Assembly (NCBI GenBank): GCA_016206665.1
Contig: JACQRC010000089.1
Coordinates: forward strand, 8,393-72,392
Direction: 5' to 3'
From: Candidatus Omnitrophota bacterium
Lineage (GTDB): Bacteria; Omnitrophota; Gorgyraeia; Aquiviventales; JACQRC01
DNA length: 64,000 nucleotides
Within the stretch, counting starts at the first letter, position 1, and every line of letters starts with the position of its first letter. This document shows, one piece after another, positions 15,901 to 43,494 of the stretch. Below the pieces are notes generated by a model, which worked only from the letters and a program-made list of their open reading frames with translations, searched no databases and was not told the origin of the DNA. The position numbers were made by a program, and so were the translations under genes.

Positions 15901-16896
15901 ATGGCCATGCGACGGACGCAGGGGAGGATTCGGATGATGAGCGAGTGCCGGAAGTCCGGGAGCTGCAGGACCCTCTGGTTCGTGCTCGTGGTGGCGGTGG
16001 TGGGGATGGGCGTGGCCCAACCGGGATGGGCCGACGAGACGACCGCGCCGGCATCGGCCTCGGCCCAGCCGCAGGCGCCCACGCAGGCTGTCTCGGAGCC
16101 CTCCACCGGTCAGGCCATCCCGGCCACCTCCGGAGAGATCATCGGCTACCAACCGATCCCCAATAGCGTCCTCGCAGGCATCGCCGCCTCGAATGCGGCC
16201 GCCGTGGCCTCGCCCGCCGCCCAGGAAGGCCAGGCCGCCGCCACCCGGACGAGGGTGCCCACCGACTTTCCGCCGCCGCCCACGACGTACGACCCCATGA
16301 CCTGGTTCGTCGGCCAGGGGCCTTACACGTTGGGCCGGGATGACGTCATCCGCATCCAGGTGCGCAACCAGCCGGACTTTAGCGGCGACTTCATCATCGA
16401 TCCCGAGGGCAGCATCCAGTACAACTACCTCAGCGATATCAAGGTCCTGGGGATGACGAAGACGGAGGTGGAGCAACTGCTCACGCAGCGGCTCGAGCAG
16501 TACATCCGCGCGCCGCAGGTGAGCGTCGTCATCCTGCAGTACAACTCCAAGGCCGTCTACGTCGTAGGCGAGGTGGCCCGGCCCGGCAAGTACATCATGC
16601 GGGGCGATGTGATCAAGCTGCGGGAGGCGATCGTGGCGTCGGGGCTGCCCACGCGCACGGCGGCCCTGGGCCGGACCCACGTCGTCAAGCCTGACCTGGA
16701 CCATCCGCGGATCCGGAAGATCAATTTGAAAAAGATCCTCTATAAAGGCCGGCTCAAGGACGACATCGACCTCTATCCGGGCGAAATCGTCGTCGTCCCC
16801 TCGACCGTGCTGGCTTCCATCAACAACTTCCTCAGCCAACTGCTCAACCCCTTCACCCGCGCCACGGCCGCCGCCGCCGTGGGCGCCGCGCTCTAA
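15901..16896 (+). CDS. polysaccharide export outer-membrane protein (Wza/EpsA family)
   Basis: Signal peptide, then the Poly_export motif (YTLGRDDVIRIQV..) and an SLBB-like repeat (VYVVGEVARPGKY). Confidence 0.75.
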   Translation: MAMRRTQGRIRMMSECRKSGSCRTLWFVLVVAVVGMGVAQPGWADETTAPASASAQPQAPTQAVSEPSTGQAIPATSGEIIGYQPIPNSVLAGIAASNAAAVASPAAQEGQAAATRTRVPTDFPPPPTTYDPMTWFVGQGPYTLGRDDVIRIQVRNQPDFSGDFIIDPEGSIQYNYLSDIKVLGMTKTEVEQLLTQRLEQYIRAPQVSVVILQYNSKAVYVVGEVARPGKYIMRGDVIKLREAIVASGLPTRTAALGRTHVVKPDLDHPRIRKINLKKILYKGRLKDDIDLYPGEIVVVPSTVLASINNFLSQLLNPFTRATAAAAVGAAL

Positions 16897-16898
16897 CC

Positions 16899-18419: not shown

Positions 18420-18430
18420 GCTGAGCCGCC

Positions 18431-19258
18431 ATGTACGAAGCCTTCTTCGGCCTGCGTGAAAAACCCTTCAACATGACACCGGACCCCCGGTATTTCTACC
18501 CCTCCATCAAGCACGTCGAGGCGCTCAATCACATGGCCTATGCCGTGGAGCAGCGGCGGGGCTTCGTGGTGCTGACGGGGGAGATCGGCTCCGGCAAGAC
18601 GACGGTGTCGCGGGTGCTCTTGTCCCGGTTGAAGGCCCCCATCAAGACGGCCGTGATTCGCAACACGCACTTGACCGCCAAGGATCTCATCAGCCGCACC
18701 CTCGACGAGTTCGAGGTGGCCTACACCCCGGGCACCAAGACGCAGCTGTTGGACCAGCTCAACGCCTATCTCATCGACCAGCTGCGCGCCGGGGCGAACG
18801 TGGTGCTGCTGGTGGATGAAGCGCAAAACCTCTCGCCCCGCCTGCTCGAAGAGATCCGCATGCTCTCCAACCTGGAAACCGACCAGGAGAAACTCATCCA
18901 GATCGTGCTGATGGGCCAGCCGGAGCTGAAGGGCAAGCTCTGGCTGCGGTCCCTGACCCAATTTCGGCAGCGCGTCACCGTCTATTACCACCTGACGCCG
19001 CTCGATGTCGAGGAGACGGCGGCCTACATCCACCACCGGCTGCGCGTGGCAGGCGCCAACGGCTCCCCGGCGTTCACCGACACGGCCTGCCGCGGCGTCT
19101 TCGAACACTCCCACGGCATCCCGCGCCTGATCAACGCGCTCTGCGATCATGCGCTGCTCACGGGGTACGTGAATGAGTCGAAGATCATCGACCAGGACGT
19201 CATTGACGAAGTCGCGACGGAATTGCCTTCATTAACCGAAGCGCCCGTCGCGAGTTAG
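18431..19258 (+). CDS. ExeA/GspA-like AAA ATPase (PEP-CTERM/exosortase-system-associated ATPase)
   Basis: Starts MYEAFFGLREKPFNMTPDPRYFY and has Walker A GEIGSGKTT. This N-terminus is characteristic of the ATPase found in exosortase EPS loci. Confidence 0.7.
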   Translation: MYEAFFGLREKPFNMTPDPRYFYPSIKHVEALNHMAYAVEQRRGFVVLTGEIGSGKTTVSRVLLSRLKAPIKTAVIRNTHLTAKDLISRTLDEFEVAYTPGTKTQLLDQLNAYLIDQLRAGANVVLLVDEAQNLSPRLLEEIRMLSNLETDQEKLIQIVLMGQPELKGKLWLRSLTQFRQRVTVYYHLTPLDVEETAAYIHHRLRVAGANGSPAFTDTACRGVFEHSHGIPRLINALCDHALLTGYVNESKIIDQDVIDEVATELPSLTEAPVAS

Positions 19259-19276
19259 GGAGGAATCTAAGGAGCC

Positions 19277-20164
19277 ATGAGCAAGATCACGAAGGCCCTG
19301 GAAAAGGCGGCGCGCGAGCGGCTGCAGCGCGAGCAGGAGCACCCCACCGTCTCGCCCGTGGTCACCCAGGTGTCGCTGGCCATCGCCGAGGCGGAGGGAA
19401 TCGCGTCGGCCGGCCAGGTGACCATCGACCCGCACATCGTCGCCGCCACCGACGCCAGCTCCCCGATTGCGGAGCAGTATCGCATTCTGCGCACGAACCT
19501 CCAGTCGCTGCGGCTGCGGTCCGGGCCGAAGGTGGTGGTGGTGACGAGCGCGATGCATAGCGAGGGCAAGACCGTCACCGCCGTCAACCTCGCCCTGACG
19601 CTCGCCCGGCAGGAGGGCTTGCGCGTCGTGCTGGTGGATGCGGACCTGCGCAAGGGGTCGGTCCATCAATGGCTGGGGTTGGGCGAGCGGACGACGGGGC
19701 TGGCCACGGTGCTGGCCAATGGGGGCCTCCTGAACGGCGCGCTCGTGCGGCTGGAGACACCGCCGCTCGCCGCGCTGTTAGCAGGGCCCAAACCGGAGCA
19801 TCCGGCGGAGCTGCTGCAATCGGCCGCCATGCCGCGCCTGCTGGCCGCATTGAAGACCCAGTTCGACGTCATCGTGGTCGATGCGCCGCCGGTGCTGCCG
19901 GTGGCCGACCCGAGCATCCTGGGCGCGTACGCCGATGGTGTGCTCCTGGTCGTCAAGGCCGGCGTCACGCAGCGCCGCGTCGTCCAACAGGCCAAAGCGC
20001 TGCTGCAACAGGCGAAGGTGCCGCTGTTGGGCTGCGTGCTGACGAATGTGGCGTTCGACCCGACCGGGCTCTACCGATACTACCGTTACTACCGCGACGG
20101 CCACGCACCCGCCGCGGCAGCGAACGGCAACGCCGCCCCAGCCGCCGAATCCGCAGCCGCCTGA
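19277..20164 (+). CDS. BY-kinase (CpsD/CapB-family tyrosine-protein kinase) of the split Wzz/kinase pair
   Basis: Walker A SEGKTVTAVNLA, VLVDADLRKG Walker A'. C-terminal tyrosine cluster YRYYRYYRDGH. Confidence 0.75.
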   Translation: MSKITKALEKAARERLQREQEHPTVSPVVTQVSLAIAEAEGIASAGQVTIDPHIVAATDASSPIAEQYRILRTNLQSLRLRSGPKVVVVTSAMHSEGKTVTAVNLALTLARQEGLRVVLVDADLRKGSVHQWLGLGERTTGLATVLANGGLLNGALVRLETPPLAALLAGPKPEHPAELLQSAAMPRLLAALKTQFDVIVVDAPPVLPVADPSILGAYADGVLLVVKAGVTQRRVVQQAKALLQQAKVPLLGCVLTNVAFDPTGLYRYYRYYRDGHAPAAAANGNAAPAAESAAA

Positions 20165-20208
20165 TCGCCGTGTCGCTCTGCTCCTCCATGCCATCCCGGA
20201 GGTAAGCC

Positions 20209-21360
20209 GTGGCCGTCCTCGTCGTTGACGCGCATTTTAAGCAGGCCCTCGTGGTCACGCGCAGCCTCGGCCGCCGCGGCGTCGCCGTCGACCTGGTGGC
20301 CCACTCGGCGTACGCGCCCGCCTTTGCCTCCAAGTACTGCCGCCGGGCCTTTCAGTCCCCTGTGCGCAAGGACCAAGACGCCTTCGTTGAGTTCCTGCTC
20401 AGCCTCGTCAAGCGGGAGCGGTACGACTTCATCCTCACCTGTGAGGATGACTCGACGCGATTGCTCTCCGAGGCGCGCAGCCGCTTTGAGCCCTACACGC
20501 AGGTGCCGCTGCCGCCCCATGACGTCGTGCAGCTGACGCTGGACAAGGCCCGGATGACCCAGTTTGCTGCGGCGCACGGCATCCCGGTCCCGCGCACCCA
20601 CTATGCGCGCACGTTCGAGGAGATTGAACGGGCGGCCCAGGAGATTGGCCGTTGGCCGGTGGTCTTGAAGTACCCGGTCGGCTATGGCTCGCGGGGAGTG
20701 AAGCCGTGCCACTCGCGGCAGGCGCTGCGGCAGCACTATGATGCGTGCCTGCAGCGGTTCGCGCCATCCACCAGCTCCTGGCTGGTGCAGGAGTGCATCG
20801 GCGGCGACAATTACGGCAACCACCACTTGTGCCGCCACGGCAGCACCCTCGTTTCGACGCAGGCGAGGCTGCTCAAGACGTTTCCGGTGGCGGGCGGCAA
20901 CACGGCCAAGGCGGTCACCGTCTCTGAGCCTGACATGGAGCAGAGTTCCCGCAAGCTCCTCGCAGCGCTGGGCTGGCATGGTGTGGCCTGTTTAGGTTTT
21001 CGCTATGACCCTGTGAGCCGGCGGTTCGTCTTCCTCGATGTCAATCCGCGTTTCGGGGGGTCGCTGTTCCTGCACGTCCTGGGAGGGGTTGATTTCCCCT
21101 ATCTCCTGCATTGCATAGTGACCGGTCGGGAGGTGTCGGTGAACGGCCGCTTTCGCACAGGGGTTTTGTACCACTCCATCTTTGAGGAGAATCTCCAGCG
21201 GGCCGTGCTGCATCCGCGCTATTTCCTGGGATACTTGTGGGACTGCCTCGACCCGCGTGTGCGTACCGAAATTGCCTGGTCCGATCTCGGCCCCATACCC
21301 AACCAGGTGCGGCAGGCGCTGTGGCGCCTCCAACGGCGGAAAGAAACGGTGGCTGCATGA
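20209..21360 (+). CDS. ATP-grasp domain enzyme (carboxylate-amine ligase-like)
   Basis: ATP-grasp fold signatures (PVPRT.., WPVVLKYPVGYGSRGV). GTG start with a GGAGG RBS. Confidence 0.55.
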   Translation: MAVLVVDAHFKQALVVTRSLGRRGVAVDLVAHSAYAPAFASKYCRRAFQSPVRKDQDAFVEFLLSLVKRERYDFILTCEDDSTRLLSEARSRFEPYTQVPLPPHDVVQLTLDKARMTQFAAAHGIPVPRTHYARTFEEIERAAQEIGRWPVVLKYPVGYGSRGVKPCHSRQALRQHYDACLQRFAPSTSSWLVQECIGGDNYGNHHLCRHGSTLVSTQARLLKTFPVAGGNTAKAVTVSEPDMEQSSRKLLAALGWHGVACLGFRYDPVSRRFVFLDVNPRFGGSLFLHVLGGVDFPYLLHCIVTGREVSVNGRFRTGVLYHSIFEENLQRAVLHPRYFLGYLWDCLDPRVRTEIAWSDLGPIPNQVRQALWRLQRRKETVAA

Positions 21361-22805
21361 AGAACCTGAAATCGGCGACCCTCTCCGGCATCGCGTGGGT
21401 CTTGGTGGCGAGCGGCAGCCAGAAGGTGCTCGGCATCGCGACGACGATTGTTCTCGCCCGGTTGCTGAGCCCCGGCGACTTCGGCCTGTTTGCGCTGGCG
21501 TTCGTCCTCATCGACGGCTTCGGCCTCTTCAAGAGCCTTGGCGTCGATTTGGCCCTGATCCGGCAGCAGGAGCGGGTCGACGAGGCCGCCGATACCGCGT
21601 TCTGTCTCTTGCCGTTCATCGGCCTGTCCTTGTCGGCGCTGCTGTATGTCGCCGCGCCGTGGGCCGCGGTGCTGCTGCGCCATCCCGAGGTGGCGCCGCT
21701 CGTCCGGGCGCTCTCCGCCATCTTCGTCTTCTCGTGTCTGGCCCAAGTGCCGAACATCCTCATGCAGAAGCGGCTGTGGTTCTGGAAGCGCGGCCTCGCC
21801 GAGACCGTGGCGACAATCAGCTATGCGGCCGCCGCGATCGGCCTGGCCGTCGCCGGGTGCGGGGTCTGGAGTCTGGTCTATGCCTATCTGCTGAAAACGG
21901 CCGTCCATTTGGCGATGGTCTGGAGCTTTGCCGGCTGGCGGCCACGCTTGCAGTTCCGCTGGGAGCTGGCCGTGCAGATGTTGCGGTACGGCAAGTACAT
22001 CCTGGGCGGCAGTTTGCTGATGTTTGTGAAGAACAATGTCGACAACGTGATCGTGGGCGCGCTGTTGGGCACCACGGCCTTGGGCTATTACGCCCTCGCC
22101 TTCAATCTCTCAACCTTCACCTCGGCGCACGTCACGGGCCGGATGTTCGGCGTCCTCTTTCCGGCGTTTTCCCAGCTGCAGGATGATGATGCGGCGCTCT
22201 GCCGGGCCTTTCTCAAGGCCCTCAAGCTCATCGCCTTGATCTCCGTGCCGTTCGGCCTGGCGCTGGTCGTCCTGGCCCCGATGGTGCTGCAGACCATCTA
22301 TGGATCGCAGTGGCTGGCGGCGAGCGAGGTCCTGCGTTTGCTGGCGGTCGGCGGCATGCTGAAGGCCTTGGGCGGCAGCCAAAGTCCCGTCTTGCTCGCC
22401 AAGGGCCGCGCCCGGGTCGACTTCTGGGTCAACGTGGCCCACGTGGGCAGCTTTTTGGTATTCATCGTGCCGCTGACCCGCCTCTGGGGTCTGCGTGGCG
22501 CGGGGTATGTCGTCTTGCTCTCCGGGGGCGTCTCCTTCCTCGTCGGCATGTGGCGGGTCCGGCGGGTGCTGCCCGTCTCCTGGAGCGCCATCGCCACGGC
22601 GATGCGGCCGGCCCTCATCGGGTCGGTCCTGATGTTAGCGGTCTTTGAGGGCTTGACGCTGTGGCGGCAAGGGTTCACCGCCTGGCCATCGACGCTGTCG
22701 ATCCCGGGTTTTCTGACGATGGCGGCGGTCTCGGTCATCGCGTATGTGGGCGTGGTCGTGCTGATCGACCGCGAGATCCGGTTGGAAGTCCAGAGGATCG
22801 TCTGA
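21357..22805 (+). CDS. wzx: polysaccharide flippase (Wzx/MOP superfamily)
   Basis: ~12 predicted TMs and the N-terminal pattern SGIAWVLVASGSQKVLGIATTIVLARLL typical of Wzx flippases. ATGA overlap with the upstream gene. Confidence 0.7.
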   Translation: MKNLKSATLSGIAWVLVASGSQKVLGIATTIVLARLLSPGDFGLFALAFVLIDGFGLFKSLGVDLALIRQQERVDEAADTAFCLLPFIGLSLSALLYVAAPWAAVLLRHPEVAPLVRALSAIFVFSCLAQVPNILMQKRLWFWKRGLAETVATISYAAAAIGLAVAGCGVWSLVYAYLLKTAVHLAMVWSFAGWRPRLQFRWELAVQMLRYGKYILGGSLLMFVKNNVDNVIVGALLGTTALGYYALAFNLSTFTSAHVTGRMFGVLFPAFSQLQDDDAALCRAFLKALKLIALISVPFGLALVVLAPMVLQTIYGSQWLAASEVLRLLAVGGMLKALGGSQSPVLLAKGRARVDFWVNVAHVGSFLVFIVPLTRLWGLRGAGYVVLLSGGVSFLVGMWRVRRVLPVSWSAIATAMRPALIGSVLMLAVFEGLTLWRQGFTAWPSTLSIPGFLTMAAVSVIAYVGVVVLIDREIRLEVQRIV

Positions 22806-23722
22806 TGATGCGAGCGGCTGCCTGGTACCAACAGCAGTGGGACGCAGGGATCCGGCTCCAGCCGGAGCGGGACCTGGTCACGAATTTCCTGGATGAATTG
22901 GAGGCCTATTCGCGGCTGCCGCGGGCGGAGGTCGAAGCGCTCTTTTACCACGGCACCGAAGCCTTTGCCCAGGAATGGGAGCAGAAGTATAAAACCGACC
23001 CCCAGGCCCGGGTCAAGTTCTATGACGAGGCGCTGACGCACATCTTCTTTGTCATGCACAACAGCGCCCTGCGGACCCACTTGAGCAGCCCCTTGCTCTA
23101 TGTGTACGCCGCCGAGTGGGCCAGGCAATCGGGGGCGCGTCGCTATCTCGACTACGGCTCCGGCACCGGCTCTGGCGCCATCTTTTTCGCGCGCTCCAGC
23201 GTCGAGACGACCCTGGCCGACATCTCGAGCCGGATGCTGGACTTCGCGCGGTGGCGGCTGGAGCGGCGGGGGCTGGCCGCAAGCTACCTAGACGTCAAGA
23301 TGACGTCGTTGCCGCGCAACCACTACGACTTCATCACCTGCTTTCATGTGCTGCAGCACGTCGAGGACCCCATCGCGACCCTGCGCCAATTGCGCGAGGC
23401 GCTGACGGACGGGGGGATCCTCATCGTGAATGGGGCCTTGCGCAAGGATCCGGACCGACCCATGCAACCGGATCATGGCGGGGCACGGACGACGCGCCAC
23501 TACCGGTCGGTCGGGTTTCAAATCCTTTGGGAGCGGAACCGCGCGATGCGGCATCTGTCAAACACTAATCCGATCGCCCTGCAGAGGGTCGAGCGGCCGG
23601 CGGTCGTCAACGGCGCGTACCTGGCGTTTGATTCGCTGTTGGCCTCACCCGTGGGCGCGCTGACGGCTGCGGCGGCCCGCGCGGTCCGCGGACGGAAAGC
23701 CCGCACCGAGGTGGCGGCATGA
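22805..23722 (+). CDS. class I SAM-dependent methyltransferase
   Basis: Motif I YLDYGSGTGSGAIFFA, then acidic motif II and TCFHVLQHV post-I. Confidence 0.65.
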   Translation: MMRAAAWYQQQWDAGIRLQPERDLVTNFLDELEAYSRLPRAEVEALFYHGTEAFAQEWEQKYKTDPQARVKFYDEALTHIFFVMHNSALRTHLSSPLLYVYAAEWARQSGARRYLDYGSGTGSGAIFFARSSVETTLADISSRMLDFARWRLERRGLAASYLDVKMTSLPRNHYDFITCFHVLQHVEDPIATLRQLREALTDGGILIVNGALRKDPDRPMQPDHGGARTTRHYRSVGFQILWERNRAMRHLSNTNPIALQRVERPAVVNGAYLAFDSLLASPVGALTAAAARAVRGRKARTEVAA

Positions 23723-25422
23723 GCGCGACGACGGCCACCGCACATCCACGCTTCCTCGCCATCGGGCTTGACGGAGCCACCTGGACCATCCTGCGCCCCC
23801 TCATGGAGCAGGGACTCCTGCCGCATTTGCAACGGCTGGTCTCGGAGGGAGCGTCGGGGGAGTTACTCTCCACGGTGCCGGCCCACTCGGGGCCGGCTTG
23901 GACGACCTTCATGACCGGGGTCAACCCGGGCAAACACGGCGTCTTCGGTTTCACGACACGGCTGTTTAACGGGAAGGTCGGCAGCCGTCCGACCAGCTCC
24001 CGCGACATCCAAGCGCCCACCATCTTTCAGCTCCTCGGGGAGGCGGGCCAGGTCGTGGGTTCGGTCAACCTGCCCATGACCTACCCGCCGTTTCCCGTGA
24101 ACGGTTTTCTCATCTCCGATGACATGCTCCGACCGCCGCGTGGCGGGGAGTTCACCTATCCGACGGACGTCTTAGCCCGCATCGGCCTCGACCCGGCGTC
24201 CTACAACGAAGGCGGCGTCCGCACCGAGCGGCACGACGGCCGTGATGAGGCCCTCATCGAGGACTCCTTGCGCCGCATCGAGATCCGCGTGCAGGTCACC
24301 CTGCGGCTCATGGCCTCCTACGACTGGCGCTATCTTGTCGTGGTCTTTACCGAAACGGACCGGGTGCAGCACCTCTTGTGGCATGTGCTCGACCCCGCGC
24401 ATCCGCGGTATGAGGAGGCGCTGGTCCAGCGCCTGCGGCCGCGGCTGCTCGAGGTCTATCGCGCGGCGGACCGGGCGATCGGGGCGTTGGCGGCTCAGGC
24501 GGGGCCGTCGTCGGTCGTGACCGTGGTCTCGGACCACGGCTTCGGCCCCCAGAAGGCGCACCTCCTGGTCAACCACGTGCTGGCCCAGTCGGGGCTGCTC
24601 GCCTTCGCCCCTACGCCGGTCCTGCCGTGGCCGTACCGAGTGCGGGGTTTTCTCCACCGCCATGTGGCGCCGTATCGGTGGCTGAAGCGCGGGCGGCAGA
24701 TGGTAAACCACAACCGGCAACAACGCAAACCCGTCAAGCGGTACATCGGCTTCAACGCCACCCAGGAGGTGGCCAGCCGGATCGACTGGTCCCGTTCGTA
24801 CATTTACTCCTTCACGGAAGCCAGCGCAGGGGTCCACGTCAACTTGAAGGGTCGCGAGCCGCACGGGGTCGTCGAGCAGGGCGACCACTACGACCAGGTG
24901 CGCCGACAGGCGATTGCCGCGCTCTCACAGGTGCGCGATCCGCAAACGGGTGAGGTCGTGCCGATCAGCTGGCATCCCAAAGAGGCCTTCTACCACGGGC
25001 CGTGCACCGAGCACGCGCCCGACATCCTGTGCGTCAACGAGTCCGATTACAAGCCGAACAGTCAGATCGCGGAGAACCGACAGGAACTCTATCTGCCGAC
25101 GGTCTACACGACTGGCTGGCACCGGGCGGAGGGCATCGTCGTCCTCGCCGGGCCGGGCATCCGACGCGGGGTCGTGTTGGCCCCGTCATCGATCGCCGAC
25201 CTGGCACCGACCACATTACATTACCTCGGCTGTCCGGTCCCCGCCCATATGGATGGCCGCGTCCTCGAAGCGGCCCTGGAGCCGTCCTGGCTGGCGACGC
25301 ACCCGATTCAGCGAGGCCAGGCGGTCATCAAGGCACAGACCGCCGCGGCAGCCGAGGTCTACTCCCCCGAGGAGATGGCGAAGATCGAGCAGCGACTCGG
25401 GGATTTGGGCTATCTGGAGTAG
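23719..25422 (+). CDS. alkaline-phosphatase-superfamily enzyme (type I phosphodiesterase / nucleotide pyrophosphatase family)
   Basis: N-terminal FLAIGLDGATW metal-binding motif and overall AP-like layout. Confidence 0.6.
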   Translation: MSATTATAHPRFLAIGLDGATWTILRPLMEQGLLPHLQRLVSEGASGELLSTVPAHSGPAWTTFMTGVNPGKHGVFGFTTRLFNGKVGSRPTSSRDIQAPTIFQLLGEAGQVVGSVNLPMTYPPFPVNGFLISDDMLRPPRGGEFTYPTDVLARIGLDPASYNEGGVRTERHDGRDEALIEDSLRRIEIRVQVTLRLMASYDWRYLVVVFTETDRVQHLLWHVLDPAHPRYEEALVQRLRPRLLEVYRAADRAIGALAAQAGPSSVVTVVSDHGFGPQKAHLLVNHVLAQSGLLAFAPTPVLPWPYRVRGFLHRHVAPYRWLKRGRQMVNHNRQQRKPVKRYIGFNATQEVASRIDWSRSYIYSFTEASAGVHVNLKGREPHGVVEQGDHYDQVRRQAIAALSQVRDPQTGEVVPISWHPKEAFYHGPCTEHAPDILCVNESDYKPNSQIAENRQELYLPTVYTTGWHRAEGIVVLAGPGIRRGVVLAPSSIADLAPTTLHYLGCPVPAHMDGRVLEAALEPSWLATHPIQRGQAVIKAQTAAAAEVYSPEEMAKIEQRLGDLGYLE

Positions 25423-25424
25423 CG

Positions 25425-26804
25425 ATGAGACGACCGTCACGCGTCCTGGTCATTGGGTTGGATTGTCTGACGCCGCAGCTGGTCTTCGACCAGTGGCGTG
25501 GCGAGTTGCCCCATCTCAGCCGGCTGATGGCGCGGGGGCTGTGGGGTCGGCTCAAGACGACCGTTCCGCCGATTACGGTCCCGGCCTGGATGTCGATGAT
25601 GACGGGCCGCGACCCGGGGGAGCTGGGCTTCTATGGCTTTCGCAACCGGGCCGACCACTCCTATCACAAGCTGGCTTACGCCACCTCAGCCCTGGTGCAG
25701 GAGCCGACGGTGTGGGACCTCTTGTCGCGCGCGGGCAAGCACGTGGTCATCTTGGGCGTGCCGCAGACCTACCCGCCCAAGCCGGTGAACGGCTGCCTGG
25801 TGAGCTGTTTCCTCACGCCGGATACGAACGCCCAGTACACCTATCCCGCGGAGCTCAAGGAGGAGATTCGCGCCGTGGTCGGCGATTACGTGCTGGACGT
25901 CCACGACTTCCGCACCGACGACAAGCAACGGATCCTCGACCAGATCTACGACATGACCGCCAAGCGCTTCCGGCTGGCCCGGCACCTGATGCAAACGAAG
26001 CCGTGGGACTTTTTCATGGTGCATGAGATCGGCATCGACCGCATCCACCACGGCTTCTGGAAGTACATGGATGCCACCCATCCCAAGCACGAGCCGGGCA
26101 ATCCGTACCAGGATGCGATCCTGCGCTACTACCAGTTTGTGGACCAACAGGTGGGCGAGCTCATCGCCCTCTCCGGCGACGAGACGGCCGTCCTGATCGT
26201 CTCCGACCATGGAGCGAAGCGGATGCTGGGCGGTATTTGCTTCAACGACTGGCTCATCCGCCAGGGCTATCTCCGCCTGAAGACGATGCCGAGTCAGCCC
26301 ACACCCCTCGAGAAGCTGGAGGTGGATTGGACGAAAACGCGCGTCTGGGGGGCGGGGGGTTATTACGGCAGGGTCTTCCTCAACGTGAAAGGCCGCGAGC
26401 CGCAGGGCCTCATCGAGCCGTCGGAGTCCGAGGCCTTCCGGGACCGGTTGATCCGCGAGATCGAGGCCATTCCCGATCATGCAGGGCGGCGGCTGGCGAC
26501 GCATGTCTACAAGCCGGAGCAGATTTACCGTGCGTGCCGGGGAGTGGCACCCGACCTCATCATCTACTTTGACGATCTGGAATGGCGGTCGGTCGGCTCC
26601 GTGGGATACGACTCGCTCTACACGTTCGACAACGATACCGGTCCCGATGACGCCAACCACGCCCAGCATGGAATCTGCGTGATGCGGGATAGTGACCGGC
26701 AGGGCTGCCGGGAGAATCTAACCATCTACGACATCGCTCCAACGATCTTGGACCTGTTTGGCCTGCCGATTCCGGCAGCGATGCAGGGCCGGGTCATTGC
26801 TTAG
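25425..26804 (+). CDS. alkaline-phosphatase-superfamily enzyme, paralog of the upstream gene
   Basis: VLVIGLDCLTP.. N-terminal motif and HGFWKYMD.. region. Shares its block layout with 23719-25422. Confidence 0.6.
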   Translation: MRRPSRVLVIGLDCLTPQLVFDQWRGELPHLSRLMARGLWGRLKTTVPPITVPAWMSMMTGRDPGELGFYGFRNRADHSYHKLAYATSALVQEPTVWDLLSRAGKHVVILGVPQTYPPKPVNGCLVSCFLTPDTNAQYTYPAELKEEIRAVVGDYVLDVHDFRTDDKQRILDQIYDMTAKRFRLARHLMQTKPWDFFMVHEIGIDRIHHGFWKYMDATHPKHEPGNPYQDAILRYYQFVDQQVGELIALSGDETAVLIVSDHGAKRMLGGICFNDWLIRQGYLRLKTMPSQPTPLEKLEVDWTKTRVWGAGGYYGRVFLNVKGREPQGLIEPSESEAFRDRLIREIEAIPDHAGRRLATHVYKPEQIYRACRGVAPDLIIYFDDLEWRSVGSVGYDSLYTFDNDTGPDDANHAQHGICVMRDSDRQGCRENLTIYDIAPTILDLFGLPIPAAMQGRVIA

Positions 26805-26821
26805 AGGTTAAGGAGGCTGCC

Positions 26822-27379
26822 ATGCGCAACGGTAACGGTGGAGTGACCCTCTGGTTCACGGGACTGCCATGTTCGGGGAAGACCACCATCGCCCAACTCG
26901 TCAGGACGGAACTCCAACAACGAGGGACAGCGGTGGAACTCCTCGACGGGGATGAAATCCGCAAGCATTTCAGCGCCGGGGTGGGCTTCAGCAAAGAGGA
27001 CCGCAGCAACCACCTCAAGCGCGTGGCGTATCTGTGCCACCTGCTCACGAAGCACGGCGTGGTGGTCTTGGCGTCGTTCGTCTCGCCCTACCGGGAGAAC
27101 CGCGACTACGCGCGGCAATTGATCGGCGAGCGGTTTGAGGAGGTCTTCGTGGACACTCCGCTCGAGGAGTGCATTCGGCGGGATGTGAAAGGCATGTACA
27201 AAAAGGCCCTCGCAGGCGAGCTCAAGGAGTTTACCGGGATCTCCGACCCGTACGAGCCGCCGCTCCAGCCGGAACTGGTGATTCGGACCGTGGGCGACAC
27301 CGTTCCGGAGAGCGCCGCGAAGGTCCTGAGGCTGTTGGAGCAGGTGCGGGCCCCGTCAACGCCAGTGGTCGTGGCATAA
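26822..27379 (+). CDS. cysC: adenylyl-sulfate (APS) kinase
   Basis: P-loop LWFTGLPCSGKTT, plus SFVSPYRENRD and PYEPP motifs of CysC. Confidence 0.85.
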   Translation: MRNGNGGVTLWFTGLPCSGKTTIAQLVRTELQQRGTAVELLDGDEIRKHFSAGVGFSKEDRSNHLKRVAYLCHLLTKHGVVVLASFVSPYRENRDYARQLIGERFEEVFVDTPLEECIRRDVKGMYKKALAGELKEFTGISDPYEPPLQPELVIRTVGDTVPESAAKVLRLLEQVRAPSTPVVVA

Positions 27380-27392
27380 GGACAGCCGAGCG

Positions 27393-28598
27393 ATGACGCA
27401 GGTGCGGGAGTTCGTCGAAGAGCCACGGCCGTTCACGGAGGCGGATTATGTGCGGCTGCGTGAGCGGTATACGGCGCAGCTCCTATCCATTGATGGGGTG
27501 CGGGCCGTCTACGAGTACGGCAACACCCACTACCATCCTGGCATCTCCGACATCGACCTCATTGCCGTCACCGAGGAGCGGCTGAGCCGCCGCGCCGCGC
27601 GGGAACTCACCATCTATCCCCTCGACGATCCGGCGGCGGTGGTGATGCGGGGGTGGGCCAACCCATGTTCCGTGGAGCTGTTTCAGCAGCCACTGCTGGC
27701 CCCGTATTGGGAGGGATCGTTGCGGCATCGGGGTGGAGCCGTCATTGCGCAGACACCCTTGGCGCCTGAGGTCGCGGCCTATGCGCATCTCATTACCGTG
27801 GTGGACCGTTGCTATCAGGCCGTCATCGGATTGATGCAGCGTTTCGTCAGCCATCGTTGGTACGTGGTAGCTACGCTGAGTCATTTGCGGGCCATCTCGC
27901 ACAACGTCCAGGTGTACGAGCGCTTCACTGGGACACCCTTGTCCGGAGCATCGAAACTCGGCGAGGCCGTTGCCGATCTGCGCCGAACGTGGTTCACAAG
28001 CGGACCGCAGCGCTATCAACGGATGGTCACCCTGGTGTCCGAGGGGTTGCGTGTAGGGCAGCGGCTCAGTCACGGGCTCGAGCAGGTATTGACGGCCCGG
28101 GGCTGGACGCGACCCTGGATCCCGCCCGAGGTGACCTTGCGTACGGATGACGGCTGGACCATGGCCTTCGGCGGGCGCACCGCAGATTGGGCAGGGCTGG
28201 CACCGACCAGCCACGGCCACCGACCGGCGTTGCCGTTGCCGCCACTCGCGTTGCGACAGCTGTACTTTATCTATCGCCATGCGCCGGATCTGTTAGGGCC
28301 AAGCCTGGTCCGCCAGTTGCGCACCCATGCGGTTCACGACGCTGCCTGGGAGTTCCAGGGTCGGTATCGAGCGGTGCTCCTGGACTACCTGTCCTTGCAG
28401 CAACAGCGGCAGCAGTACCTGCGGCGTCATCGCTTGCCAGGAAGACCGTGTCCCGGTGCGTGGTGGCACCGGCTCGAGCGGCGCGCCGTCCCGACCGTCC
28501 AACGGGCGCAGCGCTGGCTGCAGGCGCGGTGGGCCGAGCGGTCCCGGTTCGTGAAGTGGCCGCGGCGTTCCGCGCCGCAGCCGGCGCTGCGGGGGTAG
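27393..28598 (+). CDS. hypothetical protein with nucleotidyltransferase-like N-terminal motif
   Basis: YGNTHYHPGISDIDLIAV resembles a G(S)-x-D-x-D NTase signature; the rest is unknown. Co-oriented and tightly linked to cysC. Confidence 0.35.
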   Translation: MTQVREFVEEPRPFTEADYVRLRERYTAQLLSIDGVRAVYEYGNTHYHPGISDIDLIAVTEERLSRRAARELTIYPLDDPAAVVMRGWANPCSVELFQQPLLAPYWEGSLRHRGGAVIAQTPLAPEVAAYAHLITVVDRCYQAVIGLMQRFVSHRWYVVATLSHLRAISHNVQVYERFTGTPLSGASKLGEAVADLRRTWFTSGPQRYQRMVTLVSEGLRVGQRLSHGLEQVLTARGWTRPWIPPEVTLRTDDGWTMAFGGRTADWAGLAPTSHGHRPALPLPPLALRQLYFIYRHAPDLLGPSLVRQLRTHAVHDAAWEFQGRYRAVLLDYLSLQQQRQQYLRRHRLPGRPCPGAWWHRLERRAVPTVQRAQRWLQARWAERSRFVKWPRRSAPQPALRG

Positions 28599-28604
28599 GA
28601 GCCG

Positions 28605-29561
28605 ATGACAGCCACACCGATGGTGAGTGTCGTCCTGCCAACGTACAACCGGACGCAGTGGCTGGGCGAGGCCATCGAGAGCGTCCTCGCCCAGACGCTG
28701 GCCGACTGGGAGCTGGTCATCGTGGACGACGGCTCGGCGCCGGCCACGGCTGATACGGTCCGACCCCATCTGTCGGATGCGCGCATCCATTATGTCTGGA
28801 AGCCGCACGCGGGGGTGGCGGCGGCGCGCAACGCCGGGCTACGACTCACCCGCGGCTCGTATGCGGCCTTTCTGGACGATGACGACTGTTTCTTGCCTGA
28901 CAAGCTGGCCCGGCAAGTGGCCTGGATGGAGGAGCATCGGGACGTCGGCCTGGTCTACAACCAGATCTACGTGGTGGATGAACCGATGAACCAGTCTCGC
29001 CTCCTGCCACGGCGGTCGGCCCGCACCTTCCTGGAGCTGTTTTGTGAGAACGCGATTCAAGTGGCCTCGGTCTTGGTGAGGCGCACCTGTCTCGAGGCCG
29101 TCGGCGGCTTTGACGAGTCGCTCATTGGGAGCGAGGACTACGACCTGTGGTTGCGCATCGCGCAGCGGTTCCCTATCGAGTACTTGCCACGGCCGCTGGC
29201 CATCTACCGCAAACATGGTCAGAACAAATCCAACAACTTAGTGCAGCAGCGGCTCAACGCTTTGGCGATCGTCGGCCGGTACCGCGTGCACCAGGTCCCG
29301 GGCCTCACCCGGGCGGTCAAGCGCCGCCGCCTGGCGACGATCCATTATCGGTTAGCCCGCACCTACCGGGCGCAGCGAGAGTATTGGCGCACGGCGCAGC
29401 ATTTCTGGCGCGCGGCTCGACTCGATCCGGCCATTGGCACCGTCATTGAGGGGACGTCCGTGCGCGGCAGGACCTGGCTCAAGCAATGGCTCAAACCGTA
29501 TGGCGGGATTGTCTATGGCGTGGCGCAATGGGTGCGTCACGGGGCAGGAGGTCGTCGATGA
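28605..29561 (+). CDS. glycosyltransferase family 2
   Basis: VSVVLPTYNR..VIVVDDGS..FLDDDD (DxD) GT-A signatures. Confidence 0.8.
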   Translation: MTATPMVSVVLPTYNRTQWLGEAIESVLAQTLADWELVIVDDGSAPATADTVRPHLSDARIHYVWKPHAGVAAARNAGLRLTRGSYAAFLDDDDCFLPDKLARQVAWMEEHRDVGLVYNQIYVVDEPMNQSRLLPRRSARTFLELFCENAIQVASVLVRRTCLEAVGGFDESLIGSEDYDLWLRIAQRFPIEYLPRPLAIYRKHGQNKSNNLVQQRLNALAIVGRYRVHQVPGLTRAVKRRRLATIHYRLARTYRAQREYWRTAQHFWRAARLDPAIGTVIEGTSVRGRTWLKQWLKPYGGIVYGVAQWVRHGAGGRR

Positions 29562-30517
29562 GCGCTCGACAGCAACCCAACGTGACCGTTGTGGTGGTGC
29601 CCAGGGAACGGTTCAGTTTAACGCGCGCCTGCGTCGAACGACTGTATACGCACACGCCGGAGCCCTTCCAACTGTTGGTCGTAGACGCCAACGCACCGCG
29701 TCCCATCGCCCGCTGGCTCCGACAGTGGGAGGCGAGCCATGCGAACTGTCGGGTGATTCGGTCGGAGCGGTTCCTCTATCCCTACGAGGCGAAGAACCTG
29801 GTCCTGCCGCACCTGGCGACGCCGTGGGTCGCCTTTCTGGACAGCGATGTGTTGGTCGGGCCGCAGTGGCTGACCTGGTTACGGCGAGCCGCTGACGAGA
29901 CCGGAGCGCGGGTGGTGCATCCGCTCTATTTCGTCGAGCAGGAGGACGAGATCCGCATTCACATGACGGACGGCAAGTTCCGCGCGGTGCAGCGCAACGG
30001 CCAGTCGCTCGTGCATCCGGTCATGGGCCATGTGGCCCAGCGCGTTGAAGCAGCGCAGGGATTGCAGCGGCAGGACAGCGATTTTCTGGAGTTCCACGGT
30101 TTCTTCATCCACCAGGAGGTGCTCCGCCGGGTCGGCCCCTTTGAGCCCTTCACGCTGGGCGAGGATGTCAATTTCTCTTTCCGCCTGCGGGACCTCCGGG
30201 AGCGGATCGTCTTTGAGCCGCGCTCGGTCATCACCTATGTGGCGGGCCCACCGTTTGAGCGCGCCGATCTGCCCTATTTCCGATTTCGGTGGGACCTGGA
30301 ACAGGGGAAGGCCTCGGTCGAACGGTTACGCGAGCGTTGGCCGCTGCCTGAGGAATATTGCCGGGGCAAACTCTCCTGGGCGACCTATCACCACAGCCGC
30401 GCGGTGCCCTGGTTTAGTCTGGTCAAGCGCTGGCGGCGCTGGTTGGGGCAAGCGCAGTCAGCGTTGGTGGCCCAGCTGCGCCGGATGGTCCCGGTGCTTC
30501 GGTCGGCCGGCAGGTAA
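29558..30517 (+). CDS. GT-A-fold glycosyltransferase-like protein (divergent GT2)
   Basis: VTVVVVPRERF..LLVVDANAP..FLDSDV layout resembles a GT2 with a DxD. ATGA overlap with the upstream GT2. Confidence 0.5.
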   Translation: MSARQQPNVTVVVVPRERFSLTRACVERLYTHTPEPFQLLVVDANAPRPIARWLRQWEASHANCRVIRSERFLYPYEAKNLVLPHLATPWVAFLDSDVLVGPQWLTWLRRAADETGARVVHPLYFVEQEDEIRIHMTDGKFRAVQRNGQSLVHPVMGHVAQRVEAAQGLQRQDSDFLEFHGFFIHQEVLRRVGPFEPFTLGEDVNFSFRLRDLRERIVFEPRSVITYVAGPPFERADLPYFRFRWDLEQGKASVERLRERWPLPEEYCRGKLSWATYHHSRAVPWFSLVKRWRRWLGQAQSALVAQLRRMVPVLRSAGR

Positions 30518-30523
30518 GAGGAG

Positions 30524-31525
30524 ATGATGACGCAACTCACGCAGAGGCCATCACCGCTTGGCATGACGCCGAAGGTGAGCGTGGTCGTCCCGACCTACAA
30601 CCGCGCCCACCTGATCCCTGAGGCGTTGGAGAGCATCTGGGCGCAGACGTATCGGGATCTCGAGGTGATCGTCGTCGACGACGGCTCAACCGACGACACC
30701 CGCGAGATCCTGCGACCGTGGTGGCCGCGCCTGCGCTACATCTACCAGCCCAATCAGGGCTGTGCTGCGGCGCGCAACCGGGGCATCTCGCTGGCCCGCG
30801 GGACGTACGTGGCCTTCCTCGATTCGGATGACCGGTGGTTGCCGGACAAGCTCGCCCAACAGGTGGCGTGGCTGGAGGCGCACTCGAAGGCCGGGCTGGT
30901 CTACAGCCGGCTGTGGCGTTACGTGTTGGGCCGGGACGCGGAGCGCGAAATCTGCCCCCGGGAGCTGCCGGCGACGTTTCTGGACGTGCTGCGCGGCTCC
31001 GGCTTCATCCCCACCTCGACTGTCATGGTGCGGCGGCGGTGCTTGGAGGCGGTGGGTCTCTTCGACGTGTCGCTTCCCGTGGCGGAGGATTGGGACCTGT
31101 GGTTGCGCATCGCGAGGCGGTATCCGATCGCCGCGCTGCCTGCGGTGCTGGCCGAGCATCGCGAGCATGCGACCAACATCACGAAGGATCTGGCGAAGGT
31201 CTATGAGGGCTATTGGCGGTTCTACGCGAAGGCCGTCCGGCTCTACGCGACCGCCGCCGGCGCCGAGACCGCGCGGTTCCGTGACCGCGCCATTTCGTTC
31301 CGCTATCTGTTAGGGACGACGTATCTCAAGCGCGGCCAGATGCGCGAGGCGGTCAGGCAGATCGCCGGCGCCCTGCAGGCCCGGTGGTCGATCGGCACCT
31401 ATTTCGCCCGGCAACGGTCTTGGGTCACGACGCTGGCCTGTCTCCTGAAGCCGTACGGGGCCTTGACGGTGAGCCTCTTGGGTGCGCTGGGGTCATTGGT
31501 GATTCCCAGTTGGAGGTCCCGATGA
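30524..31525 (+). CDS. glycosyltransferase family 2 (paralog of 28605-29561)
   Basis: VSVVVPTYNR..VIVVDDGSTD..FLDSDD. The C-terminal EDWDLWLRIARRYPI block is shared with the paralog. Confidence 0.8.
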   Translation: MMTQLTQRPSPLGMTPKVSVVVPTYNRAHLIPEALESIWAQTYRDLEVIVVDDGSTDDTREILRPWWPRLRYIYQPNQGCAAARNRGISLARGTYVAFLDSDDRWLPDKLAQQVAWLEAHSKAGLVYSRLWRYVLGRDAEREICPRELPATFLDVLRGSGFIPTSTVMVRRRCLEAVGLFDVSLPVAEDWDLWLRIARRYPIAALPAVLAEHREHATNITKDLAKVYEGYWRFYAKAVRLYATAAGAETARFRDRAISFRYLLGTTYLKRGQMREAVRQIAGALQARWSIGTYFARQRSWVTTLACLLKPYGALTVSLLGALGSLVIPSWRSR

Positions 31526-32721
31526 TTCCCGTGCGTGTCCTCATCGCGGAATCCGGCAGCGGCTACGGCGGCAGCGCGCGCTACCTCGCCGACCTGGTGC
31601 AGCGGCTGGATCGTCGGCGGTTCGCCATCCGCGTCGTGGCGGCGGGCGAGGGCCCGTTCATTCGCCGCATCCAGGCGCAGGGGATTCCGGTGACGCTCAA
31701 GCCCCAGTGGCGATTCGTGGGATCGATGGAGGCTGCGGCCTCGTTGGTCCGGCGCAGCCTAGCGTGGTGGAACACTGCGATCGGCGGGGCGGCGCAGCTC
31801 GCACTCCTCGTGCCGGCGATCGCGGTATGGCTGCAGCGCCGCCGCATCCAGGTCGTGCATCTCAATAACGAACTGTGGTCGCATCTGCCGTTGCTGCTGG
31901 CCGCCCGCTGGGCGGGCTGCCGCACCCTCTGCCACCTCCACGGCTGGCGTCCCCTCACGCGGGCCGAGCGTTGGGCCAGCCGGTATGTGGACCAGTTCAT
32001 CGCCGTGACGCACGCCGGCGCCAGGTTTTACCGCGGGCAGCTCGGCGGTCGGGAGGTGGCGGCCATTCCGAATGGCCTCGTCCTCAACGGCGCCCGGCAC
32101 CGCGACGATGCGGACCGCGCCCGGTTGCGCGCCGCGCTCGGCGTGGAGGAAGAGGCGGTGCTCGTTGCTGCCATCGGCAGGCTCATTCCGCTCAAAGGCT
32201 GGCCGGTCTTCCTGCAGGCCCTGGCGAAGGCCCGACAACGGCAGCCGCAGCTCCGCGGCGTGGTCGTGGGCCACGACCCCTCCGCCGACCGGTCGTATGA
32301 CCGTCACCTGCAGCGCTTGGCTGCGGAACTGGGCCTCGCGTCGCACGTGTGCTTTCTGCCGTGGCAGGACGAGGTCGCGCCGATCTATGCGGCCAGCGAT
32401 CTGGTGGTCCAACCGTCGGTGCGGCCGGAGGCTTTCGGCTTCGTGACCCTTGAAGCCATGGCGGCGGGCAAACCCGTCGTGGCGAGTCGGCTGGGCGGCC
32501 TGGTCGACCTGGTGGCCGACCAGGAGACGGGACTGCTCGTGGCGCCGGGTGACGTGGCCGAGCTGGCCGGCGCGCTGGGCCTGCTCGCCGGGGACCGGAC
32601 GCTGATGGCGACGCTGGGCCACAACGCCCAGCGCCGGGCGCGGGACGTCTTTACCATGGAGCAGAACGTGACCGCCGTCACCGCGCTCTACGAACGGCTC
32701 GCGCCACAGGATGCGCCATGA
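31522..32721 (+). CDS. glycosyltransferase family 4 (GT-B)
   Basis: EAFGFVTLEAMAAGKPVVASRLGGLVDLV (E-x7-E region) typical of GT4. GGAGG RBS and ATGA overlap. Confidence 0.8.
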   Translation: MIPVRVLIAESGSGYGGSARYLADLVQRLDRRRFAIRVVAAGEGPFIRRIQAQGIPVTLKPQWRFVGSMEAAASLVRRSLAWWNTAIGGAAQLALLVPAIAVWLQRRRIQVVHLNNELWSHLPLLLAARWAGCRTLCHLHGWRPLTRAERWASRYVDQFIAVTHAGARFYRGQLGGREVAAIPNGLVLNGARHRDDADRARLRAALGVEEEAVLVAAIGRLIPLKGWPVFLQALAKARQRQPQLRGVVVGHDPSADRSYDRHLQRLAAELGLASHVCFLPWQDEVAPIYAASDLVVQPSVRPEAFGFVTLEAMAAGKPVVASRLGGLVDLVADQETGLLVAPGDVAELAGALGLLAGDRTLMATLGHNAQRRARDVFTMEQNVTAVTALYERLAPQDAP

Positions 32722-42107: not shown

Positions 42108-42109
42108 CC

Positions 42110-43246: not shown

Positions 43247-43446
43247 CGAGGAAGGCCGGACGCGGCGCCCGTCTCGTTGTTGCATTCCTGCCCCCATCTG
43301 GGCACCATCTTGTCGGAGTTCTGCAACAAGGTGGTGTAGGGCAGGGGCGCTGGCCGTTCTCTGGGATTTAGACTGAGGCGATGAGGGCAGAACCCTATGT
43401 ATTCAAATAGGTTACTACAGAGAAATAGAATTCGTGTTGAGCCGAG

Positions 43447-43465: not shown

Positions 43466-43494
43466 ATACTTTAGGTAAGCCTTGTATTCTTTAA

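Follow-up and report, generated by a model that had tools for sequence, protein, structure and literature searches.

Background

A sulfation pathway is made up of four activities: ATP sulfurylase, adenylyl-sulfate (APS) kinase, a sulfotransferase and a phosphatase for 3'-phosphoadenosine 5'-phosphate (pAp). Genes for the synthesis of 3'-phosphoadenosine 5'-phosphosulfate (PAPS) form sets with a sulfotransferase gene in NodPQ/NodH and RaxPQ/RaxST. The bacterial clusters described for sulfated polysaccharides (synechan xss of Synechocystis, and the capsular polysaccharide clusters of Vibrio and Cobetia) contain PAPS genes and a canonical PAPS-fold sulfotransferase, and two papers on such clusters take sulfate-activation genes within a surface-polysaccharide cluster as a hallmark of sulfated polysaccharide synthesis. 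Here, a 64,000-nt stretch of DNA from Candidatus Omnitrophota bacterium was analyzed (contig JACQRC010000089.1, positions 8,393 to 72,392 of the forward strand; the whole stretch is referred to below as the window), in which an APS kinase gene, cysC, lies inside an exopolysaccharide (EPS) locus next to AP2, a gene of the alkaline phosphatase (AP) superfamily that is the main subject of this work.

AP2 is preceded by a paralog, AP1, and cysC is followed by a gene for a 401-aa protein, NT401, that resembles nucleotidyltransferases (NTases). As in the described sulfation cassettes, the sulfate-activation gene of the window is found among genes for glycosyltransferases (GTs), a flippase and a polymerase. 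Unlike in those cassettes, a sulfotransferase of the PF00685, PF03567 or PF13469 type was present in neither the window nor the AP2 loci examined, and the conserved partner of cysC and of the ATP sulfurylase gene sat is AP2, a protein similar to the nucleotide pyrophosphatases/phosphodiesterases (NPPs) and sometimes fused to sat. The module may be, at a little under an even chance in our judgment, a polysaccharide sulfation cassette with an unrecognized core enzyme, one that works like the known cassettes without the enzyme that defines them.

Sulfate activation in the window

The cysC gene (26822..27379, + strand) encodes a protein of 185 aa that passes the curated thresholds of PF01583 APS_kinase (E 5.7e-59; 199 bits, cut-off 21.1) and TIGR00455 apsK (203.9 bits, cut-off 138.7). 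Its translation contains the P-loop GLPCSGKTT, the DGD motif (LLDGDEIR) and SFVSPY. By family membership, the product is a genuine APS kinase that converts APS to PAPS. Within the 64-kb window no gene for sat, cysDN, cysH, cysQ or a PHP-type phosphatase was found, and an E. coli CysQ query (tblastn, 1e-4) returned nothing from it; the supply of APS must come from an ATP sulfurylase encoded beyond the window. Canonical sulfotransferases bind PAPS through 5'-PSB and 3'-PB motifs; Pfam models for these enzymes (PF00685, PF03567, PF13469, Stf0 and others) matched no protein of the EPS locus. Apart from NT401, whose fold is of the NTase type, just one protein of the locus was without a family, of 472 aa and apparently membrane-anchored. 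A first-pass annotation, made from the nucleotide sequence alone, had described a stand-alone cysC among glycan genes with no canonical sulfotransferase in view, and this description is borne out by the CysC scores and by the lack of any sulfotransferase match.

Linkage of AP2 to cysC and sat

AP2 (25425..26804, + strand) encodes 459 aa and matches PF01663 Phosphodiest at E 1.9e-50 (172.8 bits, cut-off 23). More than 8000 clusters of relatives match it at 55-76% identity, typically 55-64% across phyla, and are found in Chloroflexota, Acidobacteriota, Methylomirabilota, Rokubacteria, Nitrospinota, Armatimonadota, Planctomycetota and others. AP2 is better conserved than the cysC or sat of the same loci. 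The only labels carried by these relatives are "alkaline phosphatase family protein", "phosphodiesterase" and "AlkP superfamily phosphohydrolase/phosphomutase".

Gene linkage was surveyed in 80 species-representative genomes with AP2 orthologs. A cysC gene was located within 1.5 kb of AP2 in 46 of the 80 and a sat gene within 2.7 kb in about 41, so that one or both were present in 53; the commonest arrangement was sat-AP2-cysC. Linked loci were distributed over Chloroflexota, Methylomirabilota, Rokubacteria, Planctomycetota (Brocadia), Nitrospinota, Schekmanbacteria, Glassbacteria, LCP-89 and Omnitrophota. The same adjacency to an APS kinase gene was seen in three distant annotated genomes, those of Methylomirabilis (where ATP sulfurylase also adjoins), Rokubacteria (in a PEP-CTERM locus) and LCP-89. 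The control consisted of 80 loci collected by means of the AP1 subfamily, of which 41 spanned 8 kb or more; the 80 contained cysC in no case, sat in one and cysDN in one. The difference in cysC linkage (46/80 against 0/80) is significant by Fisher's test (p = 2.6e-18), and enrichment in AP2 loci alone indicates that the linkage is specific to the AP2 subfamily and not general to PF01663 or to glycan loci.

In at least 15 genomes of Chloroflexota/Anaerolineae, sat and AP2 form a single open reading frame (ORF) of 861-923 aa, usually with cysC as the next gene (loci L020:8792-11383, L013, L014, L016-L019, L021, L023, L028, L034, L047, L063, L065 and L074). One such ORF was read through and consists of a complete ATP sulfurylase, a short linker and a complete AP2. 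Fusions are familiar in sulfate activation, among them PAPS synthase (ATP sulfurylase-APS kinase), CysN-CysC and the heterokont APS kinase-ATP sulfurylase-pyrophosphatase protein, and a sat-AP2 ORF followed by cysC shows the same trend to join consecutive or helper steps. It differs from them in that the partner is an NPP-like domain; no description of this Rosetta-stone fusion was found in the literature searched. AP2 also pairs with each of the two genes separately. AP2-cysC pairs without sat were found in the window, in L003, L005 and L088 and in about 10 further loci, and sat-AP2 without cysC in five loci whose flanks could be used (L033, L037, L040, L041 and L063) and in two at contig ends (L028 and L034). 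The association of AP2 with sulfate activation was not described in the 8 million full texts or the NCBIfam entries searched, and a literature search for an AP-fold sulfotransferase or for COG3379 returned nothing relevant.

The first-pass annotation had put forward both AP paralogs as candidates for the decoration chemistry. The linkage data uphold this for AP2, with cysC in 46 of 80 loci and sat fusions, and not for AP1, so the two paralogs are not equivalent.

Fold and active site of AP2

The six metal ligands of AP2 (D13, D205, H209, D261, H262 and H412) and its nucleophile T51 are conserved in the 25 sequences aligned, and several further invariant Arg, Asn and His residues are shared with AP1. 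The nucleophile stands in the context P-I-T-V-P-A-W in AP2 and A-H-S-G-P-A-W in AP1. By sequence, AP2 gave weak matches to PhnA and NPPs only. In a structure model (pLDDT 92.5), the nearest PDB folds were ENPP1/3/5, the Xac (Xanthomonas) NPP and PhnA, with Foldseek E-values of ~1e-16, TM-scores of up to 0.7 on the target and 12-18% sequence identity. AP2 thus shares with the NPPs and PhnA the fold, the six metal ligands, the Thr nucleophile and membership of PF01663. It differs from the NPPs in being cytoplasmic (no signal peptide was found on AP2), in having inserted segments and in its length (459 aa, compared with the ~380-aa core of a bacterial NPP), and from NPPs and PhnA together in its low identity to them, its status as a distinct and highly conserved subfamily and its genomic partnership with sulfate-activation genes. 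By modeled fold and catalytic residues, AP2 is a member of the NPP/PhnA branch, in a distinct subfamily of its own.

A formylglycine sulfatase (PF00884) identity was ruled out for both AP1 and AP2, which have no C/S-x-P-x-R (CxPxR) motif; AP2 scores 16.9 bits on PF00884, under the 25-bit cut-off. Scanning AP1, AP2 and NT401 against NCBIfam gave no specific family, and against PHROGs nothing.

Genomic neighborhoods of AP2

About 90 AP2 loci were searched with E. coli CysH, CysI, CysQ and Ppa (tblastn, 1e-4), and none of the four was found. With neither CysH nor CysI near AP2, PAPS is not obviously bound for reduction, and the module was rejected as part of an assimilatory reduction pathway. The lack of CysQ or Ppa next to AP2 is uninformative for excluding a phosphatase or pyrophosphatase function. 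Eight AP2 loci with complete annotation contained no Sulfotransfer_* family, and among 225 non-redundant neighbor ORFs of the 53 linked loci no sulfotransferase family recurred, in a survey run in two halves and showing the 25 commonest families with at least two members per half, from which a single sulfotransferase could escape.

A PHP-domain phosphoesterase gene was found beside or near AP2 in 8 of 93 loci. It directly follows sat-AP2 in three Thermodesulfobacteriota genomes (L037:11558-12403, L041:11712-12554 and L040:11932-12453) and lies 3-5 kb upstream of AP2-cysC in five further loci (L005:2942-3799, L088, L012, L025 and L066). Its best PDB matches were 2yb1 and RNase AM (7ug9). The former we take to be the Cv1693 pAp phosphatase (3',5'-bisphosphate nucleotidase), and the PHP protein near AP2 is probably a pAp phosphatase.

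Glycan genes adjoin AP2 in several lineages. Besides the Rokubacteria PEP-CTERM locus, an Anaerolineae O-polysaccharide operon has the order sat-AP2-cysC-LysM-LPG_synthase_TM-GT2/Bac_transf-Wzt-methyltransferase-GT2-GT1, and in Blastocatellia the order PMT_2-AP2-PMT_2 was found. AP2 pairs with genes of the GT9 heptosyltransferase family in L087, L088 and L005, and in two Ktedonobacteria loci (L052:7484-11185 and L075:11447-15169) the genes after AP2-cysC-sat encode a GHMP kinase and a SIS-domain protein that resemble HddA and GmhA of the heptose pathway. The HddA/GmhA-like and GT9 genes beside AP2 hint at a heptose-related acceptor. A methyltransferase gene, present near AP2 in the window, occurs immediately downstream of it in L003 and two genes upstream in L089.

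Two further observations were made in these neighborhoods. Proteins of the true sulfatase family (PF00884 with SGSH_C, E-values down to 1e-57) lie beside AP2/cysC/sat modules, accounting for 5 of the 225 neighbor ORFs (including L002:4074-6026). An Omnitrophota polysaccharide locus (L090:6379-14651) has the order CysD-CysN-AP (425 aa)-DUF2061-AP1-like-GT4-AP (571 aa)-GT2 and also carries two genes of the CDP-alcohol phosphatidyltransferase family and an IspD-like cytidylyltransferase; its sulfate-activation genes are of the CysDN type, with no cysC within 10 kb.

Proposed role of AP2

From comparative genomics we infer, tentatively and with nearly balanced prospects of being right, that AP2 is a PAPS-consuming, sulfate-transferring enzyme, and donor, intermediate and acceptor are proposed here on that footing. 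Somewhat more doubtfully, the AP2 subfamily as a whole (COG3379-type, PF01663) could be a so far unrecognized class of sulfuryl transferases that depend on PAPS or APS, have the AP/NPP fold and act through a covalent sulfo-threonine. Briefly, a small sulfation branch would be set between the flippase and methyltransferase genes and the GT block. CysC would supply PAPS from APS, and AP2, as a cytoplasmic NPP-like two-metal enzyme, would take the sulfuryl group from PAPS, most economically as a covalent sulfo-Thr51 intermediate on its bimetallo center. A hydroxyl on the lipid-linked repeat unit of the EPS, or another conserved acceptor, would then receive the group, and pAp would be released.

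Transferases of the AP superfamily use phospho-Thr or phosphoalcohol-Thr covalent intermediates, and EptA/MCR-1/BcsG, LtaS and phosphopentomutase are members with a covalent Thr/Ser intermediate. They provide precedent that the superfamily can deliver a group to a glycan or lipid acceptor, and not to water, when envelope polymers are decorated. These transferases are classed in PF00884 or other branches, are for the most part periplasmic and anchored in the membrane, and move phospho groups, whereas AP2 is predicted to be soluble and cytoplasmic, falls in the PF01663 branch and would, by analogy, move a sulfuryl group. With the PHP protein taken as the pAp phosphatase, three of the four activities of a sulfation pathway are assigned in these loci, which would leave AP2, the sole conserved partner without an assignment, as the transferase. 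The AP2-cysC pairs that have no sat likewise fit a PAPS-consuming branch better than a helper of ATP sulfurylase.

Several points weigh against a sulfuryl transferase. We know of no enzyme of the AP/NPP fold that transfers sulfate from PAPS, and classical NPP chemistry attacks the 5'-phosphorus of APS or PAPS, merely freeing sulfate. The 55-64% identity of AP2 across phyla suits an invariant small molecule (pAp, PAPS or pyrophosphate (PPi)) and not diverse glycans, and a sat-AP2 fusion is what would be expected of a pyrophosphatase, for which the heterokont fusion is a precedent. The genome beyond the 64-kb window could encode sat and a canonical sulfotransferase; in the neighbor survey, which displayed the commonest families only, the claim is limited to there being no recurrent sulfotransferase. 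In addition, 27 of the 80 surveyed AP2 loci have no sulfate-activation gene within 10 kb (several of them lie at contig ends), and most sat-AP2-cysC modules are found outside glycan loci.

A serious though unlikely alternative is that AP2 acts as a 3'-phosphatase on pAp and/or PAPS, like CysQ, and so clears the inhibitory by-product of PAPS use, with the sulfotransferase or PAPS reductase encoded elsewhere. Such a role would account for the tight linkage to cysC and sat, including the AP2-cysC pairs without sat, and for a conservation so high as to suit a nucleotide substrate; no CysQ homolog was present in any AP2 locus searched, and a monoesterase reaction is the easiest for an AP-superfamily site. 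It would, however, duplicate the pAp-phosphatase-like PHP gene that stands beside AP2 in eight loci, and the nearest structures of AP2 are diesterases (NPPs) and PhnA, not monoesterases. It also leaves the AP2-GT9 and PMT_2-AP2-PMT_2 neighborhoods that have no sulfate genes unexplained, and no PAPS consumer was identified in any locus examined.

That AP2 is a dedicated inorganic pyrophosphatase or another helper that pulls the unfavorable ATP sulfurylase reaction, making sat-AP2-cysC an efficient PAPS synthase module, is improbable, though it too is a serious alternative. CysC makes no PPi, yet AP2 is paired with cysC in the absence of sat in the window and some 13 other loci, and NPP-like enzymes produce PPi rather than cleave it. 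Fusion ORFs in at least 15 genomes, sat-AP2 without cysC in five loci with usable flanks and two at contig ends, the failure to find a Ppa homolog in AP2 loci and the eukaryotic ATP sulfurylase-pyrophosphatase fusions all speak for this function. Against it, soluble pyrophosphatases are near-universal, and a second, highly conserved one would have no obvious selective reason. The glycan-gene neighborhoods of AP2 would also stay unexplained.

Still more improbable is an EPS that is not sulfated at all, where cysC belongs to general sulfur metabolism or is a passenger and AP1 and AP2 add or trim phosphoesters, perhaps with the NTase-like protein. AP1-like genes are indeed common in glycan loci without sulfate genes, the closest relative (L089) keeps AP1-AP2-NT401 with no cysC between, and L090 combines AP paralogs with CDP-alcohol transferases and a cytidylyltransferase. 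Against this, the association of AP2 with cysC and sat is far above chance and AP2-specific, cysC is translationally packed within the operon, the order cysC-NT401-GT2 recurs in L092, and assimilatory reduction genes were found near no AP2 locus searched. Phosphoester decoration by AP1 and NT401 is possible.

Should AP2 be a sulfuryl transferase, the new class would explain sulfated glycoconjugates in organisms with few or no canonical sulfotransferases, and AP2 would be a new scaffold for producing sulfated polysaccharides. Only PAPS-fold and aryl sulfotransferases are recognized in a 2024 review (PMC11625862). Sulfated glycoconjugates are reported to occur commonly in EPS from granular sludges, anammox granules among them, and BLAST searches for known sulfotransferases in the dominant granule organisms mostly fail; according to the authors, the reference enzymes may not be those involved (PMC10483923). 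AP2 has a different fold and is tied to sat and cysC across many phyla, with Candidatus Brocadia among the carriers, which makes it a concrete and cheaply testable candidate for the missing activity; its subfamily occurs widely among uncultured and environmental phyla (Chloroflexota, anammox Planctomycetota, Methylomirabilota, Omnitrophota and others). If AP2 is instead a pAp phosphatase or a pyrophosphatase, it would still be a new component of bacterial sulfate activation, and the label "alkaline phosphatase family protein / phosphodiesterase" would be corrected for thousands of genes.

AP1

AP1 (23719..25422, + strand, 567 aa; PF01663 Phosphodiest E 3.4e-35, 122.7 bits, cut-off 23) is 29% identical to AP2 and has Ser at the nucleophile position. 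Its catalytic set is complete (D18, S57, D214, H218, D272, H273 and H468), and all of these except the nucleophile are listed as invariant in its family. The subfamily is broad, its members of 545-580 aa being frequently arranged in tandem in the company of GT2, PMT_2, LPG_synthase_TM and Wzy genes, and the AP1-AP2 tandem is retained in the closest relatives. Having no sulfate linkage in its subfamily (cysC in 0 of 80 loci), AP1 was dropped as a candidate equal to AP2.

The C-terminal peptide of AP1 (residues 548-567; 25360-25419) is conserved as YSxEE...IExRLxDLGYL, with L560, L563, G564 and Y565 invariant in the family, and a tail of this type is also present on an AP2 homolog with a C-terminal extension (P0025). 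The conserved tail may be a docking motif.

NT401

NT401 (27393..28598, + strand) had no match in Pfam, NCBIfam or PHROG, and a profile search against PDB sequences found nothing. Relatives are few (81 among 1.8e9 representative proteins). NT401 shares with its family the invariant NTase motif PGISDIDLI, and 34 aligned relatives keep G50, S52, D53, D55 and W200 without exception; when these 34 were compared with curated NTase families (such as PF01909 and LicD, PF04991), one touched NTP_transf_2 (E 0.0016). In some relatives the protein is joined to a GNAT, pyruvyl-transferase or FemAB-like domain. The family alignment was used to make an AlphaFold model (pLDDT 89), which had as its best PDB folds the aminoglycoside nucleotidyltransferases (ANTs) ANT(9), AadA and ANT(4'), with a Foldseek probability near 1 and an otherwise weak similarity (E 2.5e-3, TM 0.3-0.43, 9-15% identity). 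Aminoglycoside nucleotidyltransferases nucleotidylate sugar hydroxyls. Like ANT(9), AadA/ANT(3'')(9) and ANT(4'), NT401 has an N-terminal Pol-beta NTase domain with G-S...D-x-D and a helical domain; unlike the ANTs it is 150 residues longer, has no Pfam match and stands in a glycan-biosynthesis context rather than a resistance context. On the predicted fold and the motif, NT401 is a Pol-beta-type NTase with a helical C-terminal domain, belonging to a rare unclassified family, and does not have a sulfotransferase fold.

An NT401 HMM found the family in just three of ~170 AP-family loci: the contig of the window itself, L089 (methyltransferase-GT4-AP1-AP2-NT401-GT2, without cysC) and L092 (cysC-NT401-GT2). 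A relative 29% identical to NT401 lies in L175, a locus with neither an AP gene nor cysC, in the order deacetylase/GNAT/ATP-grasp, NT401, DUF6817, GT2x3, GT4, GT4x2, Wzy. The order NT401-GT2x3-GT4-GT4x2-Wzy is common to the window and L175, apart from the DUF6817 gene between NT401 and the first GT2 in L175. From these contexts NT401 belongs to the GT block, and AP1-AP2-cysC looks like a cassette placed upstream of an NT401-GT block.

The first-pass annotation had offered the 401-aa protein as a candidate non-canonical sulfotransferase, a proposal that its position directly after cysC in the window and in L092 and its lack of an assigned family might favor, but it is rejected as next to impossible given the confident ANT-like model, a nucleotidyl-transfer motif (G-S-D-x-D) invariant in the family, the presence of NT401 in so few AP-family loci, the distant homolog in a GT2x3-GT4-Wzy block without cysC or AP gene, and fusion partners of the GNAT, pyruvyl-transferase and FemAB-like types. 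It had also called for a check of 27393-28598 and the AP proteins for sulfotransferase folds; no sulfotransferase model matched, and NTase and NPP/PhnA folds were found instead. Overall, its reading of a non-canonical, sulfate-related module survives with the candidate changed from the NTase-like protein to AP2. AP1 and NT401 are outside the sulfate step and are probably separate glycan tailoring enzymes with phosphodiester or nucleotidyl/phospho-alcohol chemistry.

Organization of the EPS locus

The window has a GC content of 65%, and by the family matches of its genes a PEP-CTERM/exosortase EPS locus occupies 15901..53666 on the + strand (~15.9-53.7 kb). The XrtA-type assignment is based on Exosortase_EpsH (E 6e-63), two PEP-CTERM proteins, DUF3485, GNVR, a ParA-like protein and HisKA/HATPase together with Sigma54_activat. 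The upstream part encodes a Poly_export/SLBB exporter, a GNVR chain-length protein, an XrtA-associated ATPase and a ParA/tyrosine-kinase-like protein. These are followed by an ATP-grasp ligase-like gene (20209..21360, +; CPSase_L_D2 / ATP-grasp_3, E ~1e-6 to 1e-7, with an NCBIfam carbamoyl-phosphate-synthase-like match at E 1e-23 that is under the cut-off), a Wzx-type polysaccharide flippase (21357..22805, +, start approximate; Polysacc_synt_3 E 2.9e-75), a SAM-dependent methyltransferase (22805..23722, +, start approximate, the ORF opening at 22661; Methyltransf_23/12/11/25, E 1e-17 to 1e-14), and then AP1, AP2, cysC and NT401. Next are three GT2 genes on the + strand (28605-29561, Glycos_transf_2 E 7e-33; ~29555-30517, E 3e-12; and 30524-31525, E 1e-39), GT4 genes, Wzy, a GH123-like protein, a deacetylase, the two PEP-CTERM proteins and a Bac_transf priming enzyme. 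The locus ends with a TPR protein, the exosortase EpsH, DUF3485 and a sensor kinase with a sigma-54 activator. The AP pair, cysC and the 401-aa NTase-motif gene were all found where the first-pass annotation had placed them, on the + strand and with coding-type GC at third codon positions (0.76-0.85), and the ATP-grasp and methyltransferase genes it had named as neighbors were confirmed by their family matches.

Gaps between neighboring genes range from -4 to 17 nt, and the true start of AP2 is the ATG at 25425, 2 nt past the AP1 stop. No promoter-like (sigma-70-like) site was found from 15000 to 34000 of the window, which together with the short gaps is consistent with a single operon. The locus is closed by a PAS/HisKA sensor kinase, a sigma-54-dependent response regulator and a PocR/GAF protein (49961-55164), with rpoN at 53635-55164 on the opposite strand. 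The lack of a sigma-70-like promoter at 15-34 kb and the sigma-54 regulator and rpoN at the locus end indicate that the EPS operon is probably under sigma-54 control.

Some genes of the locus call for separate mention. The XrtA/PEP-CTERM-associated ATPase (18431-19258) scores 313 bits on TIGR03015, slightly below the cut-off of 324.5, and may be a divergent Omnitrophica version of this system. The 472-aa protein (36496-37914) has a hydrophobic N-terminal anchor and appears to be membrane-anchored; it has no Pfam, NCBIfam or PHROG family. The ORF of the GH123-like protein (38746-41322, 858 aa) overlaps the preceding GT4 gene by ~300 nt, and its true start is probably later.

Other features of the window

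No tRNA gene was found in the 64-kb window. Upstream of the EPS locus is an island of low GC content (44-52%) at 3444-12202. It contains an N6/N4 DNA methylase (3444-5144) and a ResIII helicase (5141-7360) that resemble a type III restriction-modification pair, two ORFs without a family (7463-8620 and 8733-9200), a reverse transcriptase (10404-11333) and a PolB-exonuclease/RNase H-like protein (11555-12202), and it looks like a horizontally acquired defense island. Small genes of mobile type lie around it, encoding an HTH protein (1376-1693), an NTP_transf_8 nucleotidyltransferase (2409-3092), a PIN-domain protein (12624-13028) and a DUF2283 protein (13546-13857); those at 1376-3092 and 12624-13857 look like toxin-antitoxin-like pairs.

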